A DNA stretch of 64,000 nt. Origin: Escherichia coli (GTDB lineage Bacteria; Pseudomonadota; Gammaproteobacteria; Enterobacterales; Enterobacteriaceae). The notes below the pieces were generated by a model. That model saw nothing but the letters and a program-made list of their open reading frames with translations. It was not told where the DNA came from and did not search any database. The position numbers were made by a program, and so were the translations under genes. Where the stretch lies: NCBI RefSeq assembly GCF_030013595.1, contig NZ_CP122768.1; one strand, written 5' to 3'. Positions 1-63,893 of the stretch are shown here, piece by piece. Position 1 is the stretch's first letter, and each line of letters starts with the position of its first letter.

Positions 1-115
1 TGTTCGGTTGCTGCAGTCATACACTCCTGCATTGTCCTGTGAACACTGTCTGCAATATCAACTGGCTCTCCGGAAACAAGAAAAACTGTCAGAACAAGCG
101 CAAATGCTGAATTCA
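1..115 (-). CDS. N-terminal part of a small secreted/membrane protein (YdfD-like by operon position); start at 115, continues beyond window start
   Basis: Reverse strand reads MNSAFALVLTVFLVSGEPVDIADSVHRTMQECMTAATE from an ATG overlapping the dicB stop (ATGA); identity inferred from remembered dicB-ydfD order. Confidence 0.45.
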
Positions 116-301
116 TTGTGTACATCCTTTTGGCATCAGACGTAAACGAGCCAGCATTGAAACAATGCATATTTTATTTAATAGCTCCCGTTCTTGTTTT
201 CTCTTGTTAATGGCATCTTCAGTAAATACAGGGTTACTGATAGTGACACCAATTTCAAAACAACCTTCAGACGTATTAACGTTTGGTAATAACGTTTTCA
301 T
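113..301 (-). CDS. dicB: Cell division inhibitor DicB (62 aa)
   Basis: Internal Met of the 113..406 ORF gives MKTLLPNVNTSEGCFEIGVTISNPVFTEDAINKRKQERELLNKICIVSMLARLRLMPKGCTQ, matching remembered DicB; lies downstream of DicF as expected. Confidence 0.8.
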   Translation of the reverse strand: MKTLLPNVNTSEGCFEIGVTISNPVFTEDAINKRKQERELLNKICIVSMLARLRLMPKGCTQ

Positions 302-470
302 TATCGCGTCCTCAACAATGAATTTTGTGATGCAGTGCCTGGTGCCTCCAGGTGACGTTAACCAGTTAACAATTAACGCCGGATACAGAGAATCCACCCA
401 TAACACTGTTTTTGGTTTTAACTGTTCCGCGTGCGCTTAGCCGCATTCACCGCATCACAAAATTCACTTT

Positions 471-528
471 AAAAACGGCGGCAGAGCAGTCACGGAGTAA
501 AACTGATACCGCCAAACGTCACCAGAAA
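471..528 (-). ncRNA. dicF: DicF small regulatory RNA
   Basis: Reverse complement of 471..528 is UUUCUGGUGACGUUUGGCGGUAUCAGUUUUACUCCGUGACUGCUCUGCCGCCGUUUUU, matching remembered DicF; GC stem plus U-run at 3' end; located between early ORFs and dicB. Confidence 0.75.
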
Positions 529-803
529 ATTGATAACAGAGGGCGTTGCAGCGGGGTTGTCACTTAAGCGTATGGTCAACCTGACAACTCGGTGTCCTCA
601 ACGGGGAAGGAATAACCCCGCCATACTTACCGCCGCGCCATTTCGCGGGTTGCCACAACCGGAAGCGCACGGTCGAATTAAATTTAACGACACCGTACAG
701 TGAGACGAACTTCGCCGTGCGCTTTCGTGTTGTGTGCCTGCTTTTAACCACGTCAGGCGAGGTGGTATCCTTCTTATCCCGAATAACCAAGAAGGAAATC
801 TAT

Positions 804-1004
804 ATGACTAAAGAAGAATTTGTCTCTTATATTTTTGATAAAAAGGTTGAAATGTATGCCGCTACTTACGGGTCCTGTAATCCTCTGAATAAACCAGAGG
901 GGAAAGATGATTTCGACAAAATTTACCGCTTCTTGGAGGACCGCTATATCAAAAGGTTAGAGGACGCAGGGATCAAATCCCCAGTGAAGTCACCATTGTC
1001 CTGA
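804..1004 (+). CDS. Hypothetical 66-aa protein, opposite orientation to the dicB operon
   Basis: ATG at 804 preceded by AAGGAA Shine-Dalgarno; product MTKEEFVSYIFDKKVEMYAATYGSCNPLNKPEGKDDFDKIYRFLEDRYIKRLEDAGIKSPVKSPLS; no homolog recognised. Confidence 0.3.
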   Translation: MTKEEFVSYIFDKKVEMYAATYGSCNPLNKPEGKDDFDKIYRFLEDRYIKRLEDAGIKSPVKSPLS

Positions 1005-1338
1005 GAACTTGCAGGACGTCATGATCGTAACTTCCATCCAAACCGCGACGGCAAATTGCTTCTCGTATTACCGGAAGCAGTTCGCTGGAAATCTCGGTGC
1101 ATATTTCACCTGATAATACGCCTGGCTCAAGTGAGAATATTGGTGAACTTACGGTCTTGGTCTCGACAGTTTCAGAGTCAGTGCCAACATTATAAAGCTC
1201 AACGAAAGCGGTCTTGATTTTCCGGGCCAGATCTTTTGCTGGCTCGCTTGCAATATCTTTCCCGATTTCTCGCAGCACAGAATGCAATGTATGAGCTGCT
1301 GTTTTCTGTACATCAGACGGTAAATCTTTAAATTCCAT
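973..1338 (-). CDS. Hypothetical prophage early-operon protein (YdfB/YdfC position)
   Basis: 125-aa ORF (MEFKDLPSDVQK... from second Met) in the leftward operon downstream of the ydfA-like ORF; start 1338 or 1350. Confidence 0.5.
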   Translation of the reverse strand: MEFKDLPSDVQKTAAHTLHSVLREIGKDIASEPAKDLARKIKTAFVELYNVGTDSETVETKTVSSPIFSLEPGVLSGEICTEISSELLPVIREAICRRGLDGSYDHDVLQVLRTMVTSLGI

Positions 1339-1349
1339 CGTCAGCCTCA

Positions 1350-1502
1350 TCAGTCAGTGTTTCTGGCTAACCAGCAACGCGCGCCAGATTCGGTTTTAAA
1401 CGTTTTGCTTTTGGTATACGTCATCGCGGTGAACGTGCCGTCCTGGTTGGGGAACACGCCACATACCAGAGATTCGCTGTTGCCAAGATCGATAGTATCC
1501 AT
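1350..1502 (-). CDS. Small protein YdfA-like (50 aa)
   Basis: Internal Met of ORF 1350..1556 gives MDTIDLGNSESLVCGVFPNQDGTFTAMTYTKSKTFKTESGARCWLARNTD; first gene of the operon leftward of dicA. Confidence 0.5.
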   Translation of the reverse strand: MDTIDLGNSESLVCGVFPNQDGTFTAMTYTKSKTFKTESGARCWLARNTD

Positions 1503-1582
1503 GCTGACCTCATTTCCCCTTAACGCCGGGGTAGCGGAACTGTTTGCTGAGAACACCGTGCGGTGTCTTGATGGAAAGTAAT

Positions 1583-1633
1583 TTAGAATAACCTAACATA
1601 AGAGGCAAGTGTTTTTTGTTAGATTAGTCTAAC
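1583..1633. promoter_or_regulatory. Two palindromic operator-like sites (TTAG-N6-CTAA; GTTAGA-N4-TCTAAC) in the dicB-operon promoter region
   Basis: TTAGAATAACCTAA at 1583..1596 and GTTAGATTAGTCTAAC at 1618..1633, between dicA stop and the leftward operon start. Confidence 0.5.
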
Positions 1634-1670
1634 AAAAAGAGTGGGCGCAACTAATCACTTGAAAAGAATG

Positions 1671-2078
1671 TTATTTTATTGATTTATTTTTACGCGCTTT
1701 AAGCATTTCTTCGAAGAGTTTGTTGAAGTTTTCTACTCTTGCGCGCATTTCAGACAGCAAGGCTTCCTGCTCGGAAGATGGAAGAGCATCGAATAATTCG
1801 ATCAATTCTTTGTGGTTGGGAGTTAGCTCTGTTTCCACATGAAGTTCTTGTGCCGGCACTGGTGCCTTGTCTTCGTCACCAAACATTAGCCATGTAGGTG
1901 AGCACTTCAGAGCATCCGCTAAAGCAAACAATCGTTTTCCGACTGGCTGGGTTTCGTCTCTTTCCCATTGTGAAATTGTGACGTGAGCAACCCCAGCGAG
2001 GCGCGCAGCTTCTCGTTGTGTTAAGCGTAATTCTTTTCGTCGCGCCAGAACTCGCTGGCCTAGGGTTCTTGTATCCAT
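1671..2078 (-). CDS. dicA: Repressor DicA (HTH, XRE family, 135 aa)
   Basis: Full-length similarity to remembered DicA (..TISQWERDETQPVGKRLFALADALKCSPTWLMFGDEDK.. ..MRARVENFNKLFEEMLKARKN..); divergent from a Cro-like gene. Confidence 0.85.
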   Translation of the reverse strand: MDTRTLGQRVLARRKELRLTQREAARLAGVAHVTISQWERDETQPVGKRLFALADALKCSPTWLMFGDEDKAPVPAQELHVETELTPNHKELIELFDALPSSEQEALLSEMRARVENFNKLFEEMLKARKNKSIK

Positions 2079-2080
2079 AG

Positions 2081-2144
2081 TTAGGTAATTCTAATTTTTC
2101 TTGACTTAGGTATCCCGCGCACAATAATGTTAGAAAAGTCTAAC
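2081..2144. promoter_or_regulatory. Divergent dicA/dicC promoter-operator region
   Basis: Palindromes TTAGGTAATTCTAA (2081..2094) and GTTAGAAAAGTCTAAC (2129..2144); candidate rightward promoter TTGACT (2101..2106), 17-bp spacer, ATAATG (2124..2129). Confidence 0.55.
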
Positions 2145-2158
2145 AATAGGAGGCTTTG

Positions 2159-2386
2159 ATGCTTAAAGCTGACGCAATTACTTTTTTTGGCAGCAAAACA
2201 AAGCTTGCCAATGCCGCAGGAGTGAGACTGGCAAGTGTTGCTGCTTGGGGGATACTGGTTCCTGAAGGTCGCGCGATGCGTCTACAGGAGGCATCTGGCG
2301 GGGAGCTTCAGTATGATCCCAAAGTTTATGACGAATATCGTAAGACGAAGCGGGCGGGGCGGTTGAACAATGAAAATCACTCCTGA
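2159..2386 (+). CDS. dicC: Cro-like regulator DicC
   Basis: ATG 6 nt after AGGAGG; 75 aa (MLKADAITFFGSKTKLANAAGVRLASVAAWG...); divergent from dicA. Confidence 0.7.
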   Translation: MLKADAITFFGSKTKLANAAGVRLASVAAWGILVPEGRAMRLQEASGGELQYDPKVYDEYRKTKRAGRLNNENHS

Positions 2387-2891
2387 ACAGGCTCGTGAGG
2401 CTCTGGATGCCTGGATATGTCGACCAGGAATGACACAGGAGCAGGCGACGATATTAATCACTGAAGCATTCTGGGCTTTGAAAGAGCGCCCGAACATCGA
2501 TGTTCAGCGTGTCACAGATGAAGGTGGCGCGGTTGATCAGCGAGCGCTTGGCGTTAATCGAGTGAAGATATTCGAACGCTGGAAGGCTATCGACACTAGG
2601 GATAAGCGTGAAAAGTTCACGGCGCTAGTGCCTGCAATTATGGAGGCTATCCGGATTAATGATTTCAGGTTGTATCGTGAAATTAGTGACGGAAAAAGCA
2701 TCACGTACATGATCGCCGGGTTAAACAAAGAATATGGCGATGTGGTGGAGTCCGGACTGCTTTTTGCTGATCCTGCCGTAGTGGATCGTGAAACTGACGA
2801 ACTTATAGAAAAAGCAATTGCTTTCAAACTTGCGTATCGACTGCAATACCAACAAAAAGCTGGATGGAATTATGAGCCTTCTTTTTGCTGA
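2370..2891 (+). CDS. YdaT-like prophage regulatory protein (CII-position protein)
   Basis: 173-aa ORF directly after the cro-like gene, overlapping its stop; resembles the YdaT family from memory. Confidence 0.55.
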   Translation: MKITPEQAREALDAWICRPGMTQEQATILITEAFWALKERPNIDVQRVTDEGGAVDQRALGVNRVKIFERWKAIDTRDKREKFTALVPAIMEAIRINDFRLYREISDGKSITYMIAGLNKEYGDVVESGLLFADPAVVDRETDELIEKAIAFKLAYRLQYQQKAGWNYEPSFC

Positions 2892-3837
2892 ACGCCCACT
2901 GGTTATAAACACACAGCTTGCGATGAAGATTGGCTTAAATGAAGCCATTGTGTTGCAGCAGTTGCATTACTGGTTGAGAGATACCAATTCCGGCATGGAA
3001 TGTGATGGTGTTCGCTGGATTTACAACACAACGGAACAATGGCTGGAACAGTTCCCATTCTGGCCAGAGTCAACGTTAAAGCGCGCGTTTGCAAGTCTGA
3101 AAACGCTGGGGCTTTTGCGTTGTGAAAAGCTCAATAAATCAAAGCGCGATATGACCAATTTCTACACGATCAACTATGGGAGCGAGCTTTTAGATGGTGG
3201 CAAATTGAACGAATCCATCGGTTCAAAATGCGCCGCTCCATCAGGTCAAAATGACACGATGGAAGAGGTCAAAATGAAACGCTCCATTGGTTCAAAACGA
3301 CCCAATGTCATCGGGTCAAAATGGCCTGATGATCTTACAGAGAATACAACAGAGATTACTACAGAGAATAAAAACACTTTTCGTCCGGAAGCTTCGCAAC
3401 CGGACCCGCAGACCGCTGAACAGGATTTTTTAACCCGGAACCCCGACGCGGTTGTGTTTAGTGCGAAAAAACGCCAGTGGGGTAGCAGGGAGGATTTGGC
3501 GTGTGCGCAGTGGATTTGGGGGCGGATCGTGAACCTTTACGAACAGGCTGCCAGCGACGATGGAGAGATCATGCGACCAAAAGAGCCTAACTGGACAGCC
3601 TGGGCCAATGACGTGCGCACAATGCGGATGCTGGATGGCAGAAGCCACAGACAAATTTGCGAAATGTTTGGTCGGGTACAGCGAGATCCATTCTGGGTAA
3701 AAAACATCATGAGCCCGTCAAAACTCCGCGAAAAATGGGACGAACTGGTCATCCGCTTGGGACGTTCACCTGTACAGCGTTGTGTGAATCATATTTCTGA
3801 ACCGGATACAGAAATTCCGCCTGGTTTCAGGGGATAA
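2872..3837 (+). CDS. Replication initiation protein, lambda O-like
   Basis: Position after cro/cII-like genes; contains iteron-like DNA repeats internally (translated as repeated IGSK motifs), as in lambda O/ori; start at MSLLFAERP. Confidence 0.65.
   Translation: MSLLFAERPLVINTQLAMKIGLNEAIVLQQLHYWLRDTNSGMECDGVRWIYNTTEQWLEQFPFWPESTLKRAFASLKTLGLLRCEKLNKSKRDMTNFYTINYGSELLDGGKLNESIGSKCAAPSGQNDTMEEVKMKRSIGSKRPNVIGSKWPDDLTENTTEITTENKNTFRPEASQPDPQTAEQDFLTRNPDAVVFSAKKRQWGSREDLACAQWIWGRIVNLYEQAASDDGEIMRPKEPNWTAWANDVRTMRMLDGRSHRQICEMFGRVQRDPFWVKNIMSPSKLREKWDELVIRLGRSPVQRCVNHISEPDTEIPPGFRG
3219..3324 (+). repeat. Putative replication origin iterons (about five copies of GGTCAAAATG-like repeat)
   Basis: cGGTTCAAAATG 3219..3230, GGTCAAAATG 3244..3253 and 3267..3276, GGTTCAAAACG 3289..3299, GGGTCAAAATGG 3314..3324, inside the O-like gene. 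Confidence 0.6.
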
Positions 3838-3877
3838 GTGTTGATTTCAGGTCATGAGGTAATTTTAAGGAGGACTT

Positions 3878-4273
3878 GTGGCAAAAGTTTTTACACAGGA
3901 AGAGCGGGAAAAAATTAAAGAGCAGGTGGTCGAACTTGTGCGCCAGAGCGGTCGCGAGACATTACGACAGTTGGAAGCTAAAACAGGTGCGACAAGATAT
4001 CTGATGAGCATTCTTGCCAGAGAGCTGGTTGCCAGTGGTTATGTATACAACTCCGGCTACGGGTTATTCCCGTCTGAACAGGCACGAAAGGACTGGCAAA
4101 ATGCCCGCAAAAAACTCTCTAGGGCGAAGGTGAAGAAACCCGCTGTGGTTGATCCGGACCTTATCTGGTCACTACCTGATGGAGAAATACGTCGCTACGA
4201 CAGTCGTCTAAACATAATCTGTCGCGAGTGCCGGAAGAGCGAAGTTATGCAGCGCATATTGTCGTTTTATTAG
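3878..4273 (+). CDS. Hypothetical 131-aa protein at the position where a helicase loader (P/DnaC) would be expected
   Basis: GTG start 4 nt after TAAGGAGG; no Walker motif seen; function unknown. Confidence 0.5.
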   Translation: MAKVFTQEEREKIKEQVVELVRQSGRETLRQLEAKTGATRYLMSILARELVASGYVYNSGYGLFPSEQARKDWQNARKKLSRAKVKKPAVVDPDLIWSLPDGEIRRYDSRLNIICRECRKSEVMQRILSFY

Positions 4274-4615
4274 GGAAATGTTCGGTATCTATTTAAGTGA
4301 CGAGATTAAAGTGCATTAGTTAAGATGTAAATTGACATTTTCATGGCATAGGGTAGAGGTAGCGTGGTTGTCTGCTTTGTGCCATGAACTGATGTCGCTT
4401 GTGTGCGTGGCAATTAGTGTATAACGGATATCATCAGACTCCAGCAGTAGCATTGCTTGAGCATACTAACATATGAAATCTTTAGTTAACGTAAGATAAA
4501 TTAGATTTAGTTTTTTTGAGTATGAGCTCATAAATAATCAAAAAAACTTGATACGCCATATGACTTTGATTTATTTTGGGAAAATATAAAGGTAATGTAA
4601 TGTAAAGAGGAAAAT

Positions 4616-6103
4616 GTGGACATTAGAGACTGGCTACCAGAATTTCAAGTTTCAGCAGAAACAGATCGGGACTTACAGACCTATTTTTTTAAGCTACCGG
4701 CGATAAAGGATATTATTGAAAGTAGGGCTTGGTTGGTTCTTGGAAGAAAAGGTACTGGTAAAACAGCCATTTATGAACACCTTAGAAGAGGAAAACCAGC
4801 CAATCTCAACGGGTTTTACTCAGTATGTCTAAATTTTAGTGACTATCCATGGCCAGCCCATCAACTTTACAAGGATGCAATGGCTGGAGAACTTTCCGCT
4901 TATCAAAAAAGTTGGATGTATCTTTTTTATATTAAGGCATTATCTAAACTTATTGAAATAAAAAATGATGCTGGAGAGACTTTAAACAAAGATCTAACGT
5001 GGGCACATAATTATATCAAAACTATCTTTGGTAGTCCCGACCCAACTCTTAGGGAGGTTTTGTTTTCAAAAATAACCAGATTAAAAACCATAAAAGGGCC
5101 CAGTGCTGGTCTTAATGAAGTATCATTGGACGCAGGTGAAATTTCGTTAGAGGAAGTTGCTGAGAATGCTCAGCTAAAGCAAAAGCTAAGAGCTAATGCT
5201 TTCACATTGCTTACGTATTTTGAAAAAATTTTTAAAGATAACATTGGTAATGAAAAAATAATTATCGCCCTTGACCAATTAGACGAAAACTGGCTAGAGG
5301 GGCAAATTGAAGAATATAGTAAGGTTTTAATAAATCTGCTAAATGTCTGTAGAAACATAGCATCTGATGAACGCCTCAATGATAAATTAAAAGTCATTCC
5401 CTTCCTACGAACGGATATTTATCATTCTTTGAAATTCAATGATAAAAACAAATTATTGCAAGATAGTGCTATCATAATCTCATGGAATGAAAATAATCTA
5501 AACGATATGTATTATGAGAGGATAAAGAAATACAAACCTAATGATCTCATATTAGATGACGAAAAGGACAGATCTGGGAAAGTATTTGAGGTTTCATTCG
5601 TTAGGCAGGGGACTCCTCCATTTAAATATATATGTCGCCGTTCTTTCTTTAGGCCTAGGGATATTATTGTCTACTTCAACAAAATTAGGGCATGTCATAA
5701 AAATAATGTCTCAGGTCTTTACACTTCCAATGAGCTTTATGAAGCTGACCGTGAAGCATCTATAAGTGTGTACAATGAGGTGATTGATGAATGGTCCAAC
5801 CAATTCCCTGAAATTGAGAACTTACTAACTGTTCTTCAAACTATCCAAGTAGAAACATTCGATTTTAATGATTTCTCCGAGAAGTGCCGTAATGAATTTG
5901 CAGGTATTTCTGATGGGGTGATACGTCAATATATCAACTTCCTGTTTGATAACTCACTTATCGGACAAAAAAAACAAGGTAGATGGGAATACGTAAGTAG
6001 TTTGCCTAACTTAAAAATTAATCTACAAAATGAGTTTAGGACACATCATGCTTTAAAATACAGGTTGCATTTAATAGAAAGCAGACCGAGCCAAAATATT
6101 TAG
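4616..6103 (+). CDS. AAA+/STAND-like P-loop NTPase (495 aa), AT-rich moron; candidate defence gene
   Basis: GTG start 6 nt after AAGAGG; Walker A GRKGTGKT (4742..4765); Walker B-like IIIALDQLDE (5258..5287); AT-rich codon usage unlike flanking phage genes. Confidence 0.8.
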   Translation: MDIRDWLPEFQVSAETDRDLQTYFFKLPAIKDIIESRAWLVLGRKGTGKTAIYEHLRRGKPANLNGFYSVCLNFSDYPWPAHQLYKDAMAGELSAYQKSWMYLFYIKALSKLIEIKNDAGETLNKDLTWAHNYIKTIFGSPDPTLREVLFSKITRLKTIKGPSAGLNEVSLDAGEISLEEVAENAQLKQKLRANAFTLLTYFEKIFKDNIGNEKIIIALDQLDENWLEGQIEEYSKVLINLLNVCRNIASDERLNDKLKVIPFLRTDIYHSLKFNDKNKLLQDSAIIISWNENNLNDMYYERIKKYKPNDLILDDEKDRSGKVFEVSFVRQGTPPFKYICRRSFFRPRDIIVYFNKIRACHKNNVSGLYTSNELYEADREASISVYNEVIDEWSNQFPEIENLLTVLQTIQVETFDFNDFSEKCRNEFAGISDGVIRQYINFLFDNSLIGQKKQGRWEYVSSLPNLKINLQNEFRTHHALKYRLHLIESRPSQNI

Positions 6104-10063: not shown

Positions 10064-10315
10064 ATGATGAACATCGAAGAACTGCGTAAAATTTTTTGTG
10101 AAGATGGCCTCTATGCTGTGTGCGTTGAAAATGGAAATCTTGTTAGTCATTACCGCATTATGTGTTTGCGAAAGAATGGGGCTGCGTTAATTAATTTTGT
10201 GGATGGTCGAGTGACAGACAGATTTATCTTGCGCGAAGGTGAGTTTGTCACTTCATTACAGGCACTGAAAGAGATCGGAATAAAAGCAGGCTTTTCAGCT
10301 TTTGCAGAAGAATAA
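10064..10315 (+). CDS. rem: Rem-like small prophage protein (83 aa)
   Basis: 83-aa ORF MMNIEELRKIFCEDGLYAVCVENG... at the position of rem between hokD and ydfU. Confidence 0.55.
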   Translation: MMNIEELRKIFCEDGLYAVCVENGNLVSHYRIMCLRKNGAALINFVDGRVTDRFILREGEFVTSLQALKEIGIKAGFSAFAEE

Positions 10316-24541: not shown

Positions 24542-25567
24542 ATGTCGATGTACACAACCGCCCAGCTGCTGGCGGCAAATGAGAAGAAATTTAAGTTTGA
24601 TCCGCTGTTTCTGCGTCTCTTTTTCCGTGAGAGCTATCCCTTCACCACGGAGAAAGTCTATCTCTCACAAATTCCGGGACTGGTAAACATGGCGCTGTAC
24701 GTTTCGCCGATTGTTTCCGGTGAGGTTATCCGCTCCCGTGGCGGCTCCACCTCTGAATTTACACCGGGATATGTCAAGCCGAAGCATGAGGTGAATCCGC
24801 AGATGACCCTGCGTCGCCTGCCGGATGAAGATCCGCAGAATCTGGCGGACCCGGCTTACCGCCGCCGTCGCATCATCATGCAGAACATGCGAGACGAAGA
24901 GCTGGCCATTGCTCAGGTCGAAGAGATGCAGGCAGTTTCTGCTGTGCTTAAGGGCAAATACACCATGACCGGTGAAGCCTTCGATCCGGTTGAGGTGGAT
25001 ATGGGCCGCAGTGCGGCGAACAACATCACACAGTCCGGTGGTACGGAGTGGAGCAAGCGTGACAAGTCCACGTATGACCCGACCGACGATATCGAAGCCT
25101 ATGCGCTGAACGCCAGCGGAGTGGTGAATATCATCGTGTTTGATCCGAAAGGCTGGGCGCTGTTCCGTTCCTTCAAAGCCGTCAGGGAGAAGCTGGATAC
25201 CCGTCGCGGCTCTCATTCCGAGCTGGAGACAGCGGTAAAAGACCTGGGCGAAGCGGTGTCCTATAAGGGGATGTATGGCGATACGGCGATCGTCGTGTAT
25301 TCCGGACAGTACGTGGAAAACGACGTCAAAAAGAACTTCCTTCCGGACAACACGATGGTGCTGGGGAACACTCAGGCACGCGGTCTGCGCACCTATGGCT
25401 GCATTCAGGATGCGGACGCACAGCGCGAAGGTATTAACGCCTCTGCCCGCTACCCGAAAAACTGGGTGACCACCGGCGATCCGGCGCGTGAGTTCACCAT
25501 GATTCAGTCAGCACCGCTGATGCTGCTGGCTGACCCTGATGCGTTCGTGTCCGTACAACTGGCGTAA
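24542..25567 (+). CDS. E: Major capsid protein E
   Basis: 341 aa MSMYTTAQLLAANEKKFKFDPLFLRLFFRESYPFTTEKVYL..., lambda gpE. Confidence 0.95.
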   Translation: MSMYTTAQLLAANEKKFKFDPLFLRLFFRESYPFTTEKVYLSQIPGLVNMALYVSPIVSGEVIRSRGGSTSEFTPGYVKPKHEVNPQMTLRRLPDEDPQNLADPAYRRRRIIMQNMRDEELAIAQVEEMQAVSAVLKGKYTMTGEAFDPVEVDMGRSAANNITQSGGTEWSKRDKSTYDPTDDIEAYALNASGVVNIIVFDPKGWALFRSFKAVREKLDTRRGSHSELETAVKDLGEAVSYKGMYGDTAIVVYSGQYVENDVKKNFLPDNTMVLGNTQARGLRTYGCIQDADAQREGINASARYPKNWVTTGDPAREFTMIQSAPLMLLADPDAFVSVQLA

Positions 25568-25608
25568 TCATGGCCCTTCGGGGCCATTTTCTCTCTGTGG
25601 AGGAGTCC

Positions 25609-26004
25609 ATGACGAAAGATGAACTGATTGCCCGTCTTCAGGTGCTGGGTGAGCAACTGAACCGTGATGTCAGCCTGACGGGGACGAAAGAAGAACTGGT
25701 GCTCCGTGTGGCAGAGCTGGAAGAGGAGCTTGATGACACGGATGACGCTGCCGGTCAGGACACATCTGTCAGCCCGGAAAATGCGCTGACCGGACATGAA
25801 AATGAGGTGGTATCAGCGCAGCCGGATACCGTGACTGATACGGCTGATCTGGTCACGGTTGTGGCACTGGTGACGCTGCATACTGATGCACTTCACGCCA
25901 CGCGGGATGAGGCTGTGGCATTTGTGCTGCCGGGAACGGCGTTCCGTGTCTCTGCCGGTGTGTCAGCTGAAATGACAGAGCGCGGCCTGGCCAGAATGCA
26001 ATAA
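25609..26004 (+). CDS. FI: DNA packaging protein FI
   Basis: MTKDELIARLQVLGEQLNRDVSLTGTKEELVLRVAELEEEL..., lambda gpFI. Confidence 0.85.
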   Translation: MTKDELIARLQVLGEQLNRDVSLTGTKEELVLRVAELEEELDDTDDAAGQDTSVSPENALTGHENEVVSAQPDTVTDTADLVTVVALVTLHTDALHATRDEAVAFVLPGTAFRVSAGVSAEMTERGLARMQ

Positions 26005-26015
26005 CGGGAGGCGCT

Positions 26016-26369
26016 GTGGCTGATTTCGATAACCTGTTCGATGCTGCCATTGCCCGCGCCGATGAAACGATACGCGGGTACATGGGAACGTCAGCCACCA
26101 TGACATCCGGTGAGCAGTCCGGTGCTGTGATACGTGGTGTTTTTGATGACCCTGAAAATATCAGCTATGCCGGACAGGGCGTGCGCGTTGAAGGCTCCAG
26201 CCCGTCCCTGTTTGTCCGGACTGATGATGTGCGGCAGCTGCGGCGCGGCGACACGCTGACCATCGGTGAGGAAAACTTCTGGATAGACCGGATTTCGCCG
26301 GATGATGGCGGAAGCTGTCATCTCTGGCTTGGGCGGGGCGTACCGCCTGCCGTTAACCGTCGCCGCTGA
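26016..26369 (+). CDS. FII: Head-tail connector FII
   Basis: 117 aa MADFDNLFDAAIARADETIRGYMGTSA..., lambda gpFII. Confidence 0.9.
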   Translation: MADFDNLFDAAIARADETIRGYMGTSATMTSGEQSGAVIRGVFDDPENISYAGQGVRVEGSSPSLFVRTDDVRQLRRGDTLTIGEENFWIDRISPDDGGSCHLWLGRGVPPAVNRRR

Positions 26370-26380
26370 AAGGGGGATGT

Positions 26381-26959
26381 ATGGCCATAAAAGGTCTTGA
26401 GCAGGCCGTTGAAAACCTCAGCCGTATCAGCAGAACGGCGGTGCCCGGTGCCGCCGCAATGGCCATTAACCGCGTTGCTTCATCCGCGATATCGCAGTCG
26501 GCGTCACAGGTTGCCCGTGAGACAAAGGTACGCCGGAAACTGGTAAAGGAAAGGGCCAGGCTGAAAAGGGCCACGGTCAAAAATCCGCAGGCCAGAATCA
26601 GGGTTAACCGGGGGGATTTGCCCGTAATAAAGCTGGGTAACGCGCGGATTGTCCTGTCCCGACGCAGGCGTCGTAAAAAGGGGCAGCGTTCAGCCCTGAA
26701 AGGTGGCGGCAGCGTGCTTGTGGTGGGAAACCGTCGTATTCCCGGCGCGTTTATTCAGCAACTGAAAAATGGCCGCTGGCATGTCATGCAGCGTGTGGCC
26801 GGGAAAAATCGTTACCCCATTGATGTGGTGAAAATCCCGATGGCGGTGCCGCTGACCACGGCGTTTAAACAGAATATTGAGCGGATACGGCGTGAGCGTC
26901 TTCCGAAAGAGCTGGGCTATGCGCTGCAGCATCAACTGAGGATGGTAATAAAGCGATGA
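26381..26959 (+). CDS. Z: Tail completion protein Z
   Basis: 192 aa, lambda gpZ-like. Confidence 0.9.
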   Translation: MAIKGLEQAVENLSRISRTAVPGAAAMAINRVASSAISQSASQVARETKVRRKLVKERARLKRATVKNPQARIRVNRGDLPVIKLGNARIVLSRRRRRKKGQRSALKGGGSVLVVGNRRIPGAFIQQLKNGRWHVMQRVAGKNRYPIDVVKIPMAVPLTTAFKQNIERIRRERLPKELGYALQHQLRMVIKR

Positions 26960-27351
26960 AACATACTGAACTCCGAGCAGCCGTACTGGATGCACTGGAG
27001 AAGCATGACACCGGGGCGACGCTTTTTGATGGTCGCCCCGCTGTTTTTGATGAGGAAGATTTTCCGGCAATTGCCGTTTATCTCACCGGCGCTGAATACA
27101 CGGGCGAAGAGCTGGACAGCGATACCTGGCAGGCGGAGCTGCATATTGAAGTTTTCCTGCCTGCTCAGGTGCCGGATTCAGAGCTGGATGCGTGGATGGA
27201 GTCCCGGATTTATCCGGTGATGAGTGATATCCCGGCACTGTCAGATTTGATCACCAGTATGGTGACCAGCGGCTATGACTATCGGCGCGACGATGATGCG
27301 GGCCTGTGGAGTTCAGCCGATCTGACTTATGTCATTACCTATGAAATGTGA
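26956..27351 (+). CDS. U: Tail terminator protein U
   Basis: 131 aa, lambda gpU-like. Confidence 0.9.
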
Positions 27352-27358
27352 GGACGCT

Positions 27359-28099
27359 ATGCCTGTACCAAATCCTGTAATGCCGGTGAAAGGGGCCGGG
27401 ACCACCCTGTGGGTTTATAAGGGGAGTGGTGACCCTTATGCGAATCCGCTTTCAGACGTTGACTGGTCGCGTCTGGCAAAAGTTAAAGACCTGACGCCCG
27501 GCGAACTGACCGCTGAGTCTTATGACGACAGCTATCTCGATGATGAAGATGCAGACTGGACTGCGACCGGGCAGGGGCAGAAATCTGCCGGAGATACCAG
27601 CTTCACGCTGGCGTGGATGCCCGGAGAGCAGGGGCAGCAGGCGCTGCTGGCGTGGTTTAATGAAGGCGATACCCGTGCCTATAAAATCCGCTTCCCGAAC
27701 GGCACGGTCGATGTGTTCCGTGGCTGGGTCAGCAGTATCGGTAAGGCGGTGACGGCGAAGGAAGTGATTACCCGCACGGTGAAGGTCACCAATGTGGGAC
27801 GTCCGTCGATGGCAGAAGATCGCAGCACGGTGACGGCGACAACCGGCATGACGGTGACACCCGCCAGTGCTTCCGTAGTGAAAGGGCAGAGCACCACGCT
27901 GACCGTGGCATTCCAGCCGGATGGCGCAACCGACAAGAGCTTCCGTGCGGTGTCTGCGGATAAAACAAAAGCCACCGTGTCGGTCAGTGGTATGACCATC
28001 ACCGTGAAAGGTGTTGCTGCAGGCAAGGTCAACATTCCGGTCGTATCCGGTAATGGTGAGTTTGCTGCGGTTGCAGAAATCAACGTCACCGCCAGTTAA
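27359..28099 (+). CDS. V: Major tail protein V
   Basis: [45 protein letters not shown]..., lambda gpV with C-terminal Ig-like domain. Confidence 0.9.
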
Positions 28100-63227: not shown

Positions 63228-63893
63228 ATGTTAGATTTGTTTAAAGCAATAGGCCTGGGGCTGGTGGTGTTACTGCCGTTAGCTAACCCATTAACAACTG
63301 TCGCGTTATTTCTTGGCCTGGCAGGCAACATGAACAGTGCCGAACGTAATCGTCAGTCGTTGATGGCCTCGGTGTACGTATTTGCCATCATGATGGTGGC
63401 GTATTACGCCGGGCAACTGGTGATGGATACATTTGGCATTTCGATTCCCGGTCTGCGAATTGCAGGCGGCTTAATCGTCGCGTTTATCGGTTTTCGGATG
63501 CTCTTTCCGCAACAGAAAGCGATTGATTCACCGGAGGCGAAAAGCAAGTCGGAAGAGCTGGAAGATGAACCCAGCGCCAATATTGCTTTTGTACCACTGG
63601 CAATGCCAAGTACCGCCGGTCCGGGAACCATTGCAATGATTATTAGCTCGGCGTCCACAGTGCGTCAGAGTTCAACCTTCGCTGATTGGGTGCTGATGGT
63701 TGCGCCGCCGCTGATCTTTTTCCTGGTGGCGGTTATTTTGTGGGGAAGTCTACGCAGCTCTGGCGCAATTATGCGGCTGGTGGGTAAGGGGGGCATTGAA
63801 GCGATCTCCCGTCTGATGGGATTCCTGCTGGTATGTATGGGGGTGCAGTTTATTATTAACGGCATCCTGGAAATCATTAAAACGTACCACTAA
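63228..63893 (+). CDS. marC: Inner membrane protein MarC
   Basis: 221 aa [33 protein letters not shown]... Confidence 0.85.

Follow-up and report, generated by a model that had tools for sequence, protein, structure and literature searches.

Four copies of the palindrome TTAG-N6-CTAA flank dicA in this prophage, and our results support the view that they are the operators of a CI/Cro-like switch, located at the PR-like and PL-like promoters on the two sides of the repressor gene. The pattern (TTAGNNNNNNCTAA, searched on both strands) has exactly four matches in the window, i.e. in the whole 64-kb stretch of DNA that was analysed, and all four lie inside 562 bp around the gene of a 135-aa DicA homologue. 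In 100 dinucleotide-preserving shuffles the expected count was 0.51 and the maximum 2, so that none of them (0/100) reached four. The four sites had been proposed from the sequence alone, and exact search recovers them at the proposed places on either side of dicA. The 16-bp ranges initially given for two of them (1618-1633 and 2129-2144) are correct as one-base extensions of the symmetry (GTTAG...CTAAC). The original prediction also called for a search of the motif elsewhere in the prophage; run over the whole 64-kb window, this search found no fifth exact match.

The palindromes and their context

The elements of the module are the following, with the palindromes numbered as operators 1 to 4:

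113-301, minus strand: dicB (Pfam DicB, 136 bits)
476-527, minus strand: DicF RNA (Rfam, 72.5 bits)
973-1338, minus strand: hypothetical gene in the operon 113..1502
1350-1502, minus strand: DUF1391/ydfA-like coding sequence, first gene of the repressed operon 113..1502
1580-1608, minus strand: putative dicB-operon promoter (dicBp, PL-like), placed by homology to K-12; TTGCCT (1608-1603), 17 bp, TAAATT (1585-1580)
1583-1596: operator 1, TTAGAATAACCTAA, exact match, weight-matrix score 23.1 bits
1619-1632: operator 2, TTAGATTAGTCTAA, exact match, 26.6 bits, the top score in the window
1671-2078, minus strand: dicA-like repressor gene, 135 aa, WP_000381212.1, 57% identical to K-12 DicA
2081-2094: operator 3, TTAGGTAATTCTAA, exact match, 22.5 bits
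2101-2128, plus strand: dicC promoter (PR-like); TTGACT (2101-2106), 16 bp, AATAAT (2123-2128); 10/12 consensus positions
2106-2110, plus strand: isolated half-site TTAGG; its first base is the last one of the dicC -35 hexamer
2130-2143: operator 4, TTAGAAAAGTCTAA, exact match, 25.6 bits
2159-2386, plus strand: dicC-like (Cro-like) gene, 75 aa, P22_Cro 1.1e-12, 86% identical to K-12 DicC
2370-2891, plus strand: YdaT-family gene downstream of dicC (YdaT_toxin, 1.2e-5)
10064-10315, plus strand: rem, an open reading frame annotated as rem in a 99.8%-identical genome

The sites differ in the extent of their symmetry. It reaches arms of 11 bp in operator 2 (1613-1623 and 1628-1638) and the arms are just 4-5 bp in operators 1, 3 and 4. 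The full TGTTAG...CTAACA symmetry is present in operators 2 and 4, which read TTGTTAGATTAGTCTAACAA and ATGTTAGAAAAGTCTAACAA (2127-2146) in their 20-bp forms, and is present on one side only in operators 1 and 3. All eight half-sites are TTAGA or TTAGG. The centres of operators 1 and 2 are 36 bp apart and those of operators 3 and 4 are 49 bp apart. These spacings are not whole helical turns, which makes cooperativity between sites uncertain.

The sites also stand out when scored with information from other loci. We used a 20-bp weight matrix trained on the sites of other DicA proteins only, leaving out loci encoding the DicA of the window or its 94%-identical MDTKTLGQR variant. The four operators score between 22.5 and 26.6 bits, and the runner-up (63228-63247) has 11.5 bits, the mean maximum of randomised sequence. 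Scanning the 64-kb window with this matrix for further operators, e.g. near rem, dicF or host genes, revealed nothing above chance. When one mismatch was allowed, 12 sites were found in the window against 17 expected, with no extra site near the dicA locus.

Domain and identity searches upheld the earlier gene assignments (dicA, dicC and the dicB operon). DicA matches the HTH_3 domain (Pfam, 1.5e-14) and, in residues 1-71, the N-terminal domain of P22 C2 (1.3e-18). It has an XRE/P22 C2-type helix-turn-helix, with recognition helix V-x-ISQWER, followed by a helical C-terminal part. Its C-terminal half aligns with that of K-12 DicA, and a Pfam search at E <= 0.01 returned no match to Peptidase_S24. 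The protein thus has the features of DicA-type repressors: an XRE/C2-type helix-turn-helix, a length of ~135 aa and no LexA/S24 self-cleavage domain. The YdaT-family gene is a candidate analogue of CII; in prophage CP-933P, YdaT activates a PRE-like promoter (PMC8630535).

Proposed operators and promoters on either side of dicA

We compared the operators across ~160 DicA-type prophage loci. About 150 were usable, with 116 distinct intergenic pairs and ~50 different DicA proteins, the most distant of which share roughly 52-66% identity. The operator slots are kept across these loci. The search pattern itself imposes TTAG and CTAA; next to them, contacted and flanking positions carry ~1-2 bits and the central positions ~0.5-1.5 bits. 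Judged from these alignments, the combination of kept outer bases and variable central bases is the classic footprint of an operator.

A rightward promoter adjoining one of the palindromes had been predicted upstream of dicC. It is indeed present, but the -10 hexamer then proposed, ATAATG, is one base out of register (consensus match 1/6). The core of operator 4 starts one base after the -10 AATAAT and its 20-bp form covers the expected start point. The homologous promoter of K-12 (TTGACT-17-TATCTT) has the same layout relative to the operator, and operator 4 shares position and core with K-12 Oc (TTGTTAGTCATAACTAACAA), within which the dicC start point of K-12 was mapped by 5'RACE (PMC3441716). 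The 20-bp dyad typical of Oc, TTGTTAG-N6-CTAACAA, is found in operators 4 and 2, and operator 4 also lies, as Oc does, across the start point and next to the -10 at dicC (AATAAT, one base, then TTAG at 2130). The distance of this operator from the dicA ATG is kept at -65/-66/-72 in all lineages.

Operator 3 ends 2 bp upstream of the dicA ATG and overlaps a candidate dicA -10, TAGAAT (2093-2088, minus strand). This TAGAAT, 9 bp upstream of the ATG, is conserved, and across loci the slot is invariant, as TTAGAAT in the class of the window (W) or TTAGCAT in that of K-12 (K). Reading the sequence upstream of the ATG, we saw no Shine-Dalgarno sequence. The dicA mRNA of K-12 has a leader of less than 10 nt, i.e. 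it is leaderless (PMC4681348). Given this leader and its place next to the ATG, operator 3 would cover the core of the dicA promoter and the start point, so that a protein bound there would repress dicA. By analogy with lambda, operator 3 is more likely an OR3-like shut-off site for dicA. The lone TTAGG half-site is probably what is left of a middle operator. At this place, related lineages carry a complete third site, GTAGAGAAACCTAA at -40 or TTAACAATAACTAA at -47, 25-26 bp from its neighbours, and the window retains the half-site only.

On the other side of dicA, the putative dicB-operon promoter aligns with K-12 dicBp (TTGACC-17-TAATCT), from which its placement derives; it matches 8/12 consensus positions, below the threshold of the promoter scan. 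Operator 1 lies inside the spacer of this promoter and overlaps 3 bp of its -10. At the equivalent place, within TTGACC-17-TAATCT, K-12 has TTAGTCATGGCTAA. This slot holds an exact site in nearly all lineages compared and a site with a single mismatch in one; two or three lineages are without any site downstream of dicA. Operator 2 is 10 bp upstream of the -35 of dicBp, and its 11-bp arms follow the dicA stop codon at a distance of 33 nt. Across loci, the slot lies at +37 to +44 from that codon, often with one mismatch in the K-12 class; the position holds a perfect palindrome in the window and is degenerate in K-12. The comparative footprint thus places a predicted DicA operator in the dicBp spacer and -10, with a helper site upstream. 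The Reg-Seq paper describes the DicA site at dicB as one of low evidence and unknown location (PMC7567609). The K-12 counterpart of operator 1, at 1,648,414-1,648,427, would fill this position.

Proteins that probably read the operators

Much of the functional evidence comes from K-12. There, Oc binds DicA in vivo and a change of CTAA to CTCA abolishes binding; occupancy of Oc requires dicA, and DicA bound at Oc activates dicA (PMC3441716). A DicA site at dicC was also recovered by Reg-Seq (PMC7567609). Deletion of dicA raises the activity of dicBp 22-fold and deletion of dicC leaves it unchanged (PMC10448788), so DicA must act at or near operators 1 and 2. In the gSELEX paper on single-target regulators, the dicB operon is the only DicA target given, with no site stated, and the main text of a transcription factor compendium (PMC12059191) contains neither DicA nor DicC. 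That DicA represses the dicB operon and dicC is a fact of K-12 which we carry over to the allele of the window. More generally, all functional evidence for the operators is borrowed from K-12, whose repressor shares 57% identity with the DicA of the window.

The original prediction regarded DicA as a CI-like repressor acting at both promoters. Binding at Oc, 22-fold repression of dicBp and the comparative footprint support this core. Yet the palindromes do not stand as sites of DicA alone. K-12 DicC uses a TT(A/C/T)G...C(G/A/T)AA palindrome, its strongest ChIP-seq signal is in the dicC/dicA promoter region, and two sites flanking dicA were inferred from these data (PMC11430063). The presence of the DicC motif on either side of dicA in K-12 points to the palindromes of the window as shared CI/Cro-type operators.

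One might go further and propose that the palindromes are mainly DicC sites, and that DicA reads only operator 4, and perhaps operator 1, through features beyond the TTAG/CTAA core. The ChIP-seq maximum of DicC at the dicC/dicA promoter and its TTNG...CNAA palindrome would fit this proposal, as would the full symmetry common to operators 2 and 4 and one-sided in operators 1 and 3. Furthermore, K-12 DicA bound Oc in an in vivo assay but neither Om nor Oa, which are the other two operators predicted between dicA and dicC (PMC3441716, data not shown), which means that the TTAG-N6-CTAA core is insufficient for DicA binding. From the operator names, Oa is presumed to be the ATG-proximal palindrome, i.e. 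the homologue of operator 3. However, this assay used single sites in vivo at low DicA and could have missed weak or cooperative binding. The proposal is also at odds with the effects of the two deletions on dicBp and with the observation that position 5 of the half-site follows the class of the DicA recognition helix at dicBp sites as well. We consider it unlikely, although worth keeping in mind.

The sites could also be non-functional relics of the switch of an ancestral phage, now carried by a defective prophage. The prophage has insertions of IS66, ISEsa1 and IS3, its replication region is rearranged and its middle operator has been reduced to a half-site. But dicB, DicF and ydfD have remained intact, and in K-12 their derepression is toxic (PMC10448788, PMC3441716), which implies selection on DicA and on its dicBp operator. 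Moreover, dicA, dicC and rem are full length, and E. coli B REL606 shares all four sites and an identical DicA protein with the window, with the four cores exact in both genomes while the central bases differ. It is thus very improbable that the sites are relics. The earlier claim of an intact switch holds for the dicA/dicC/dicB module (open reading frames, promoters, operators and rem) and fails for the prophage as a whole, which is defective.

A host factor as main binder, either YjdC or an H-NS/Cnu complex, in place of the prophage proteins seems more improbable still. YjdC does bind the dic locus, as shown by ChIP-qPCR, and affects dic expression (PMC9283627), and the CnuK9E-H-NS complex antagonises DicA at Oc (PMC3441716). 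Yet the half-site changes with the class of the prophage repressor and not with the host, the motif occurs nowhere else in the 64 kb, and occupancy of Oc in K-12 depends on dicA (PMC3441716).

Finally, the inverted repeats might act as RNA hairpins that terminate or stabilise the dicA or dicB-operon transcript, as the long arms of operator 2 shortly after the dicA stop and a weak, hairpin-only match of this operator to an unrelated Rfam model could suggest, but we give this almost no credit: the short arms of operators 1, 3 and 4 argue against it, operators 3 and 4 lie at or upstream of start points, and it is the letters TTAG/CTAA that recur, at each of the four sites and across lineages, not pairing-preserving substitutions. 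Apart from that weak match, DicF was the sole element returned by Rfam searches (gathering threshold on 1-6000, E <= 10 on 1450-1650); neither the palindromes nor the operon leader gave a hit. We reject a terminator at operator 2: the terminator scan finds no such site at 1580-1640, and the A/U-rich stem is followed by no U-run on either strand.

We therefore favour, with good confidence, a lambda/P22-type bistable switch formed by DicA (CI/C2-like) and DicC (Cro-like), with the palindromes as its operators. The operator would be the 14-bp core TTAGR-N4-YCTAA, extended in operators 2 and 4 to ~18-20 bp (TGTTAGR-N4-YCTAACA); a dimer would place one helix-turn-helix on each half-site and leave the 4 bp in the centre uncontacted. 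At operator 4, over the dicC start point, DicA would block transcription of dicC-ydaT. At operator 1, probably aided by operator 2, it would occupy the spacer and -10 of dicBp and keep ydfA, DicF and dicB silent; since division is stopped by both DicB and DicF, the cell depends on this silencing. A protein bound at operator 3, where the -10 and the start point of a presumably leaderless dicA mRNA lie, would turn dicA off. This site would most likely be preferred by DicC, and perhaps also be used by DicA in excess, as in lambda OR3. We infer rather than observe the assignment of operators 1-3 to particular proteins and any cooperativity between sites. Repression would be relieved by the Rem antirepressor, which relieves DicA repression in K-12 (PMC10448788), or by instability of DicA; cleavage through RecA is not expected, because DicA is devoid of a peptidase domain. 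One might also speculate that DicA oligomers bridge the two operator pairs, ~500 bp apart, looping out dicA. If true, this could explain why isolated Oa and Om of K-12 fail to bind DicA.

Nothing but DicA protects the cell from two potent division inhibitors, DicB and DicF, and for this reason dicA behaves as essential in K-12. The allele of the window is that of E. coli B (REL606 and BL21), and its operators are thus relevant to work on filamentation and prophage expression in the B lineage.

Possible immunity classes and related switches

The inner base of the half-site separates the window from K-12. Position 5 is a purine in 63/68 half-sites of the repressor class of the window and a pyrimidine in 60/62 of the K-12 class, and a second comparison gave the same split, which follows two or three clades and thus represents few independent evolutionary events. 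The TTAGY of K-12 is accordingly absent from the window, which has TTAGR. This difference, which is new here, suggests different immunity specificities. The half-sites may fall into three types: GTTAGR in the window and E. coli B, GTTAGY in K-12, and TTAGR preceded by a base other than G at loci whose repressors have SQAALGKL as helix 2. We tentatively propose, as a possibility for which the case is not quite even, that DicA/DicC systems form at least two, perhaps three, hetero-immune operator classes and that the Qin immunity cassette has been exchanged between strains at a single locus. If the classes are hetero-immune, several DicA-type prophages in one genome would control their own copies of dicB and DicF separately. 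The TTAGR/TTAGY split would then offer a simple basis for immunity specificity among repressors that are close to P22 C2, a protein of known structure.

The closest known system is the Qin immunity region of K-12 (dicC-dicA-dicBp; Bejar et al. 1986/1988, Yun et al. 2012, Ragunathan et al. 2023), with the same gene order and chromosomal locus (ydfJ side). Besides Oc, Om and Oa, operators at dicBp are predicted in it. Its TTAG-N6-CTAA cores are placed as in the window relative to the dicA ATG, to the -10 of dicC and to the spacer of dicBp; the repressor also has 135 aa and lacks a cleavage domain, and rem is present. In contrast, the window has other open reading frames in place of ydfB/ydfC and a YdaT-family gene after dicC.

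In P22, the half-site is TTAAG, against TTAGR in the window, and there are three operators per side; unlike DicA, P22 C2 ends in an S24 domain for self-cleavage and is inducible through RecA. The DNA-binding domain of C2 (2R1J, 3JXB) and a nearly identical recognition helix are common to the DicA of the window (E 1.3e-18). The operators of C2 span 18 bp, with contacts at 2-7 and 12-17 and four uncontacted central bases (PMC4267663), the same pattern of conserved outer and variable central positions as in window-type operators.

The layout of lambda OR/OL is also recognisable: a divergent repressor/cro pair shares operators over both promoters, PR and PRM (here operators 3 and 4), and a second set lies at PL (here operators 1 and 2, at the promoter placed by K-12 homology). 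A leaderless repressor mRNA and bistability are further points in common with the dic system of K-12 (PMC10448788, PMC4681348). Lambda has three operators per region, spaced ~23-26 bp, whereas the window has two and a half-site between dicA and dicC, and two at dicBp; some relatives have three at 25-26 bp. Other differences are that the dic regions are separated by only ~500 bp, with the repressor gene as the sole gene between them, that the C-terminal part of the repressor is unrelated, and that dic induction is expected to proceed via an antirepressor. Prophage CP-933P of E. coli O157:H7 (PaaR2/YdaS/YdaT, PMC8630535) is likewise lambdoid and defective. Its repressor gene is leaderless and its expression bistable, as in the dic system of K-12; in it, too, a Cro-like gene is followed by a YdaT-family gene and palindromes lie over PRM-, PR- and PL-like promoters. 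It differs in repressor family, in the consensus of the repeats (GTTTAGTAA) and in carrying a toxin-antitoxin pair inside the repressor operon. The accepted picture of lambdoid switches is left unchanged by our results.

We also considered the leader RNA of the dicB operon, with its element at 1516-1567, as a counterpart of HK022 putL. HK022 was not among the matches of a blastn search of 50,697 phage records, there is no evident sequence similarity between the leader and the HK022 PL-nun interval, and a loose structural regular expression, run over the window to find the leader pseudoknot a second time (as in putR), gave chance-level matches only. MAFFT and RNAalifold on the whole leader yielded one 4-bp helix only, as the hairpin region was misaligned; a short alignment with anchors, in which pairs were counted explicitly, took its place. 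The leader RNA of the dicB operon is conserved.

Four palindromes in the Qin immunity region

The locus is that of a Qin prophage at its usual place beside ydfJ, as read from a 99.8%-identical genome where the prophage carries rem, Q, lysis, head and tail genes and is interrupted by IS66, ISEsa1 and IS3 elements. The region around dicA contains:

113-301, minus strand, dicB (Pfam DicB, 136 bits)
476-527, minus strand, DicF RNA (Rfam, 72.5 bits)
973-1338, minus strand, hypothetical gene without Pfam match
1350-1502, minus strand, DUF1391/ydfA-like gene
1671-2078, minus strand, dicA-like ORF of 135 aa (HTH_3 domain; 57% identity to K-12 DicA)
2159-2386, plus strand, dicC-like ORF of 75 aa (P22_Cro family; 86% identity to K-12 DicC)
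2370-2891, plus strand, YdaT-family gene

The motif TTAGNNNNNNCTAA has exactly four matches in the 64-kb window, at 1583-1596, 1619-1632, 2081-2094 and 2130-2143 (sites 1 to 4). Dinucleotide-preserving shuffles gave a mean of 0.51 and never reached four. Allowing one mismatch across the window added no site near the locus and revealed no enrichment. We also scored the window with a 20-bp weight matrix trained solely on sites beside other DicA proteins; loci with the window's own DicA, or with the variant 94% identical to it, were left out of the training. The four sites score 22.5-26.6 bits, and the next best position in the window 11.5 bits, the level of randomised sequence. By exact count, shuffles and weight matrix, the four TTAG-N6-CTAA palindromes of the original prediction are thus real and correctly located, and the search beyond the locus that it proposed, run over the 64-kb window, yielded these four and no others. 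Two of them gain one symmetric base (GTTAG...CTAAC), so that their 16-bp versions were right, and at site 2 (1619) the symmetry extends to 11-bp arms (1613-1623 and 1628-1638). E. coli B REL606 has an identical DicA protein and four sites at equal offsets, with central bases of site 2 that differ from those of the window.

A consensus scan places the rightward dicC promoter at TTGACT (2101-2106), 16 bp, AATAAT (2123-2128). The predicted TTGACT stands; the -10 had been read as ATAATG, in the same stretch and one base out of register. Site 4 starts one base past AATAAT and therefore covers the expected start point. On the minus strand, the leftward dicB-operon promoter (dicBp) reads TTGCCT (1608-1603), 17 bp, TAAATT (1585-1580). 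It matches the consensus at only 8 of 12 positions and is accepted on the strength of a base-for-base alignment with TTGACC-17-TAATCT of K-12, whose spacer also holds TTAG-N6-CTAA. Site 1 occupies the spacer plus three bases of the -10; site 2 lies upstream of the -35, at a distance of 10 bp. A gap of 2 bp separates site 3 from the dicA ATG, which no Shine-Dalgarno sequence precedes in the window. Within site 3, TAGAAT (2093-2088, minus strand) lies 9 bp before the ATG at 2078, a placement that would fit the -10 of a near-leaderless dicA transcript; the K-12 dicA mRNA leader is shorter than 10 nt (PMC4681348).

Conservation and specificity classes

We drew 160 loci from viral contigs, each with a gene for a relative of the window's DicA or of K-12 DicA. 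Some 150 of them could be used; they comprise 116 distinct intergenic pairs and about 50 different repressor proteins, and nearly all keep the site slots.

Slots of the sites, with the middle operator of some lineages
-65 to -72 from the dicA ATG: slot of the K-12 operator Oc
-15 to -22 from the dicA ATG: ATG-proximal slot
+37 to +44 from the dicA stop: seen in lineages whose dicA-dicBp spacer is short
+69 to +78 from the dicA stop: in these lineages as well, always 36 bp downstream of the preceding slot
-40 (loci L054-L082) or -47 (L148-L150) from the dicA ATG: middle operator

The middle dicA-dicC site lies 25-26 bp from its neighbours, a spacing like that of lambda OR. What the window retains of it is a lone half-site, TTAGG (2106-2110), which runs into the -35 of dicC.

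When diverged representatives are aligned, half-sites and promoter hexamers stand out as the conserved blocks. The search pattern itself fixes TTAG and CTAA; the adjoining contacted and flanking positions hold about 1-2 bits, the central ones about 0.5-1.5 bits. An operator read by a helix-turn-helix dimer would be expected to show conserved outer positions around a variable centre in this way. Over its N-terminal 70 residues, DicA matches the DNA-binding domain of P22 C2 (E 1.3e-18) and keeps most of the recognition helix. Each P22 operator is an 18-bp dyad contacted at positions 2-7 and 12-17, the central four being read only indirectly (PMC4267663). Site 4 in this notation is T-GTTAGA-AAAG-TCTAAC-A, and the contacted/non-contacted split of P22 C2 coincides with the conserved/variable split of DicA-type sites.

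The half-site varies with the repressor: TTAGR tracks the recognition helix VAHVTISQWE (window, E. coli B) and TTAGY tracks ISHVSVSQWE (K-12), as seen on comparing loci L003-L162 with the K-12 locus, L001.

Bases adjoining the core, by repressor type
VAHVTISQWE: G at flanking position -1 in 53/60 (TQR-type helix 2); purine at position 5 in 63/68
VAHVTISQWE, helix 2 SQAALGKL: G at -1 in 0/18; purine at position 5 in 18/18
ISHVSVSQWE: G at -1 in 47/76; pyrimidine at position 5 in 60/62

In P22-style numbering, the base that tells the classes apart is the innermost of the contacted ones. DicC, too, has a different recognition helix in each of the two main classes (RLASVAAW versus RLASLYSW), and the hexamer in the site-3 slot is invariant within each, TAGAAT for the window class and TAGCAT for that of K-12. 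Sequence comparison suggests that the repressor classes may have distinct immunities, and that hetero-immune DicA/DicC cassettes may have been exchanged at one Qin locus. The classes are clades, however, and the independent changes behind them are therefore few. The position-5 base offers a testable immunity determinant. The system is a Qin/P22-like immunity switch with variant operator specificity.

Which protein binds which site

In K-12 Qin, the core stands at homologous places as TTAGTCATAACTAA (Oc), TTAGCATTAGCTAA beside the dicA ATG and TTAGTCATGGCTAA in the dicBp spacer. Yun et al. found the 20-mer Oc, TTGTTAGTCATAACTAACAA, occupied in vivo in a dicA-dependent manner, a single A-to-C change (CTAA to CTCA) removing occupancy; by 5'RACE of the dicC start point Oc spans the -10 and the start region, dicA is stimulated by Oc-bound DicA, and the other predicted operators, Om and Oa, showed no DicA binding in the same in vivo assay (PMC3441716). 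Reg-Seq recovered the DicA site at dicC and lists that at dicB as low-evidence, location unknown (PMC7567609). Deletion of dicA raises dicBp 22-fold, Rem relieves DicA repression, and spontaneous switching requires DicC (PMC10448788). The window has a full-length rem (10064-10315, plus strand, 83 aa), the gene of this antirepressor, which may also act on the window's 57%-identical DicA.

By extension from K-12, DicA would bind the Oc homologue and repress both promoters: dimers at site 4 would block the dicC start, and DicA at site 1 would block dicBp, with site 2 probably helping. Since site 3 covers the dicA promoter, its occupation would turn dicA off. The analogy with OR3, together with the K-12 result for Oa and the ChIP data on DicC, leads us to infer that site 3 is OR3-like and bound mainly by the Cro-like DicC; the protein assignments of sites 1 and 2, and cooperativity, are likewise presumptive. 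Of use here are the predicted position of the DicA operator at dicBp and the OR3-like reading of the ATG-proximal site.

The ChIP motif of K-12 DicC is itself a palindrome, TT(A/C/T)G...C(G/A/T)AA (PMC11430063), and the original reading of the sites as DicA operators, sound in outline, was too DicA-centred. Assigning all palindromes to DicC conflicts with dicBp repression, which is dicA-dependent and dicC-independent. If a host factor were the binder, the link between half-site and prophage repressor class would go unexplained. That the sites are relics is unlikely, as their cores are exact while central bases drift, and dicB, DicF and ydfD are intact and toxic. RNA hairpins or terminators fail: there is no U-run, arms are short in three of the four sites, and identical letters recur rather than compensatory changes.

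Other prophage features and the dicB-operon leader

Two overlapping hypothetical ORFs without Pfam match, 804-1004 (plus strand) and 973-1338 (minus strand), meet tail to tail over about 30 nt and stand in for K-12 ydfB and ydfC between the ydfA-like gene and DicF. At 4616-6103 (plus strand), where K-12 Qin has other genes, lies a 495-aa P-loop ATPase, assigned to the Sll1717 family by the annotation of a near-identical genome; it is flanked by a DUF977 gene and a truncated ISEsa1 transposase, with IS remnants adjoining, and may be inserted cargo or a defence-type gene. At about 24,800-27,500, a position deduced from the near-identical genome, an IS66-family element (tnpA, tnpB, ISCro1-type transposase) splits the S49 head-protease gene, and this otherwise fairly complete Qin prophage is therefore defective for morphogenesis.

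The leader between dicBp and the ydfA-like ATG at 1502 (minus strand, 1567-1516) is a conserved structured RNA. It opens with a hairpin, GACACC/GCAC/GGUGUU (1567-1552), whose stem covaries among lineages, followed by an invariant GUUC (1540-1537) and two 4-bp helices that interleave as an H-type pseudoknot:

1536-1533 with 1527-1524, minus strand, helix A
1531-1528 with 1519-1516, minus strand, helix B

On 26 distinct sequences, 88.8% of the cells pair and 5 of the 8 pairs have changes on both sides, values reached by 0 of 500 shuffles; sliding the 3' partners by 1-3 columns gave 29-55% pairing. Neither an Rfam match nor evident similarity to HK022 putL was seen for the element, and the window contains no second copy of it. 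It may act in put- or nut-like antitermination, in processing or stability, or in the control of ydfA translation.
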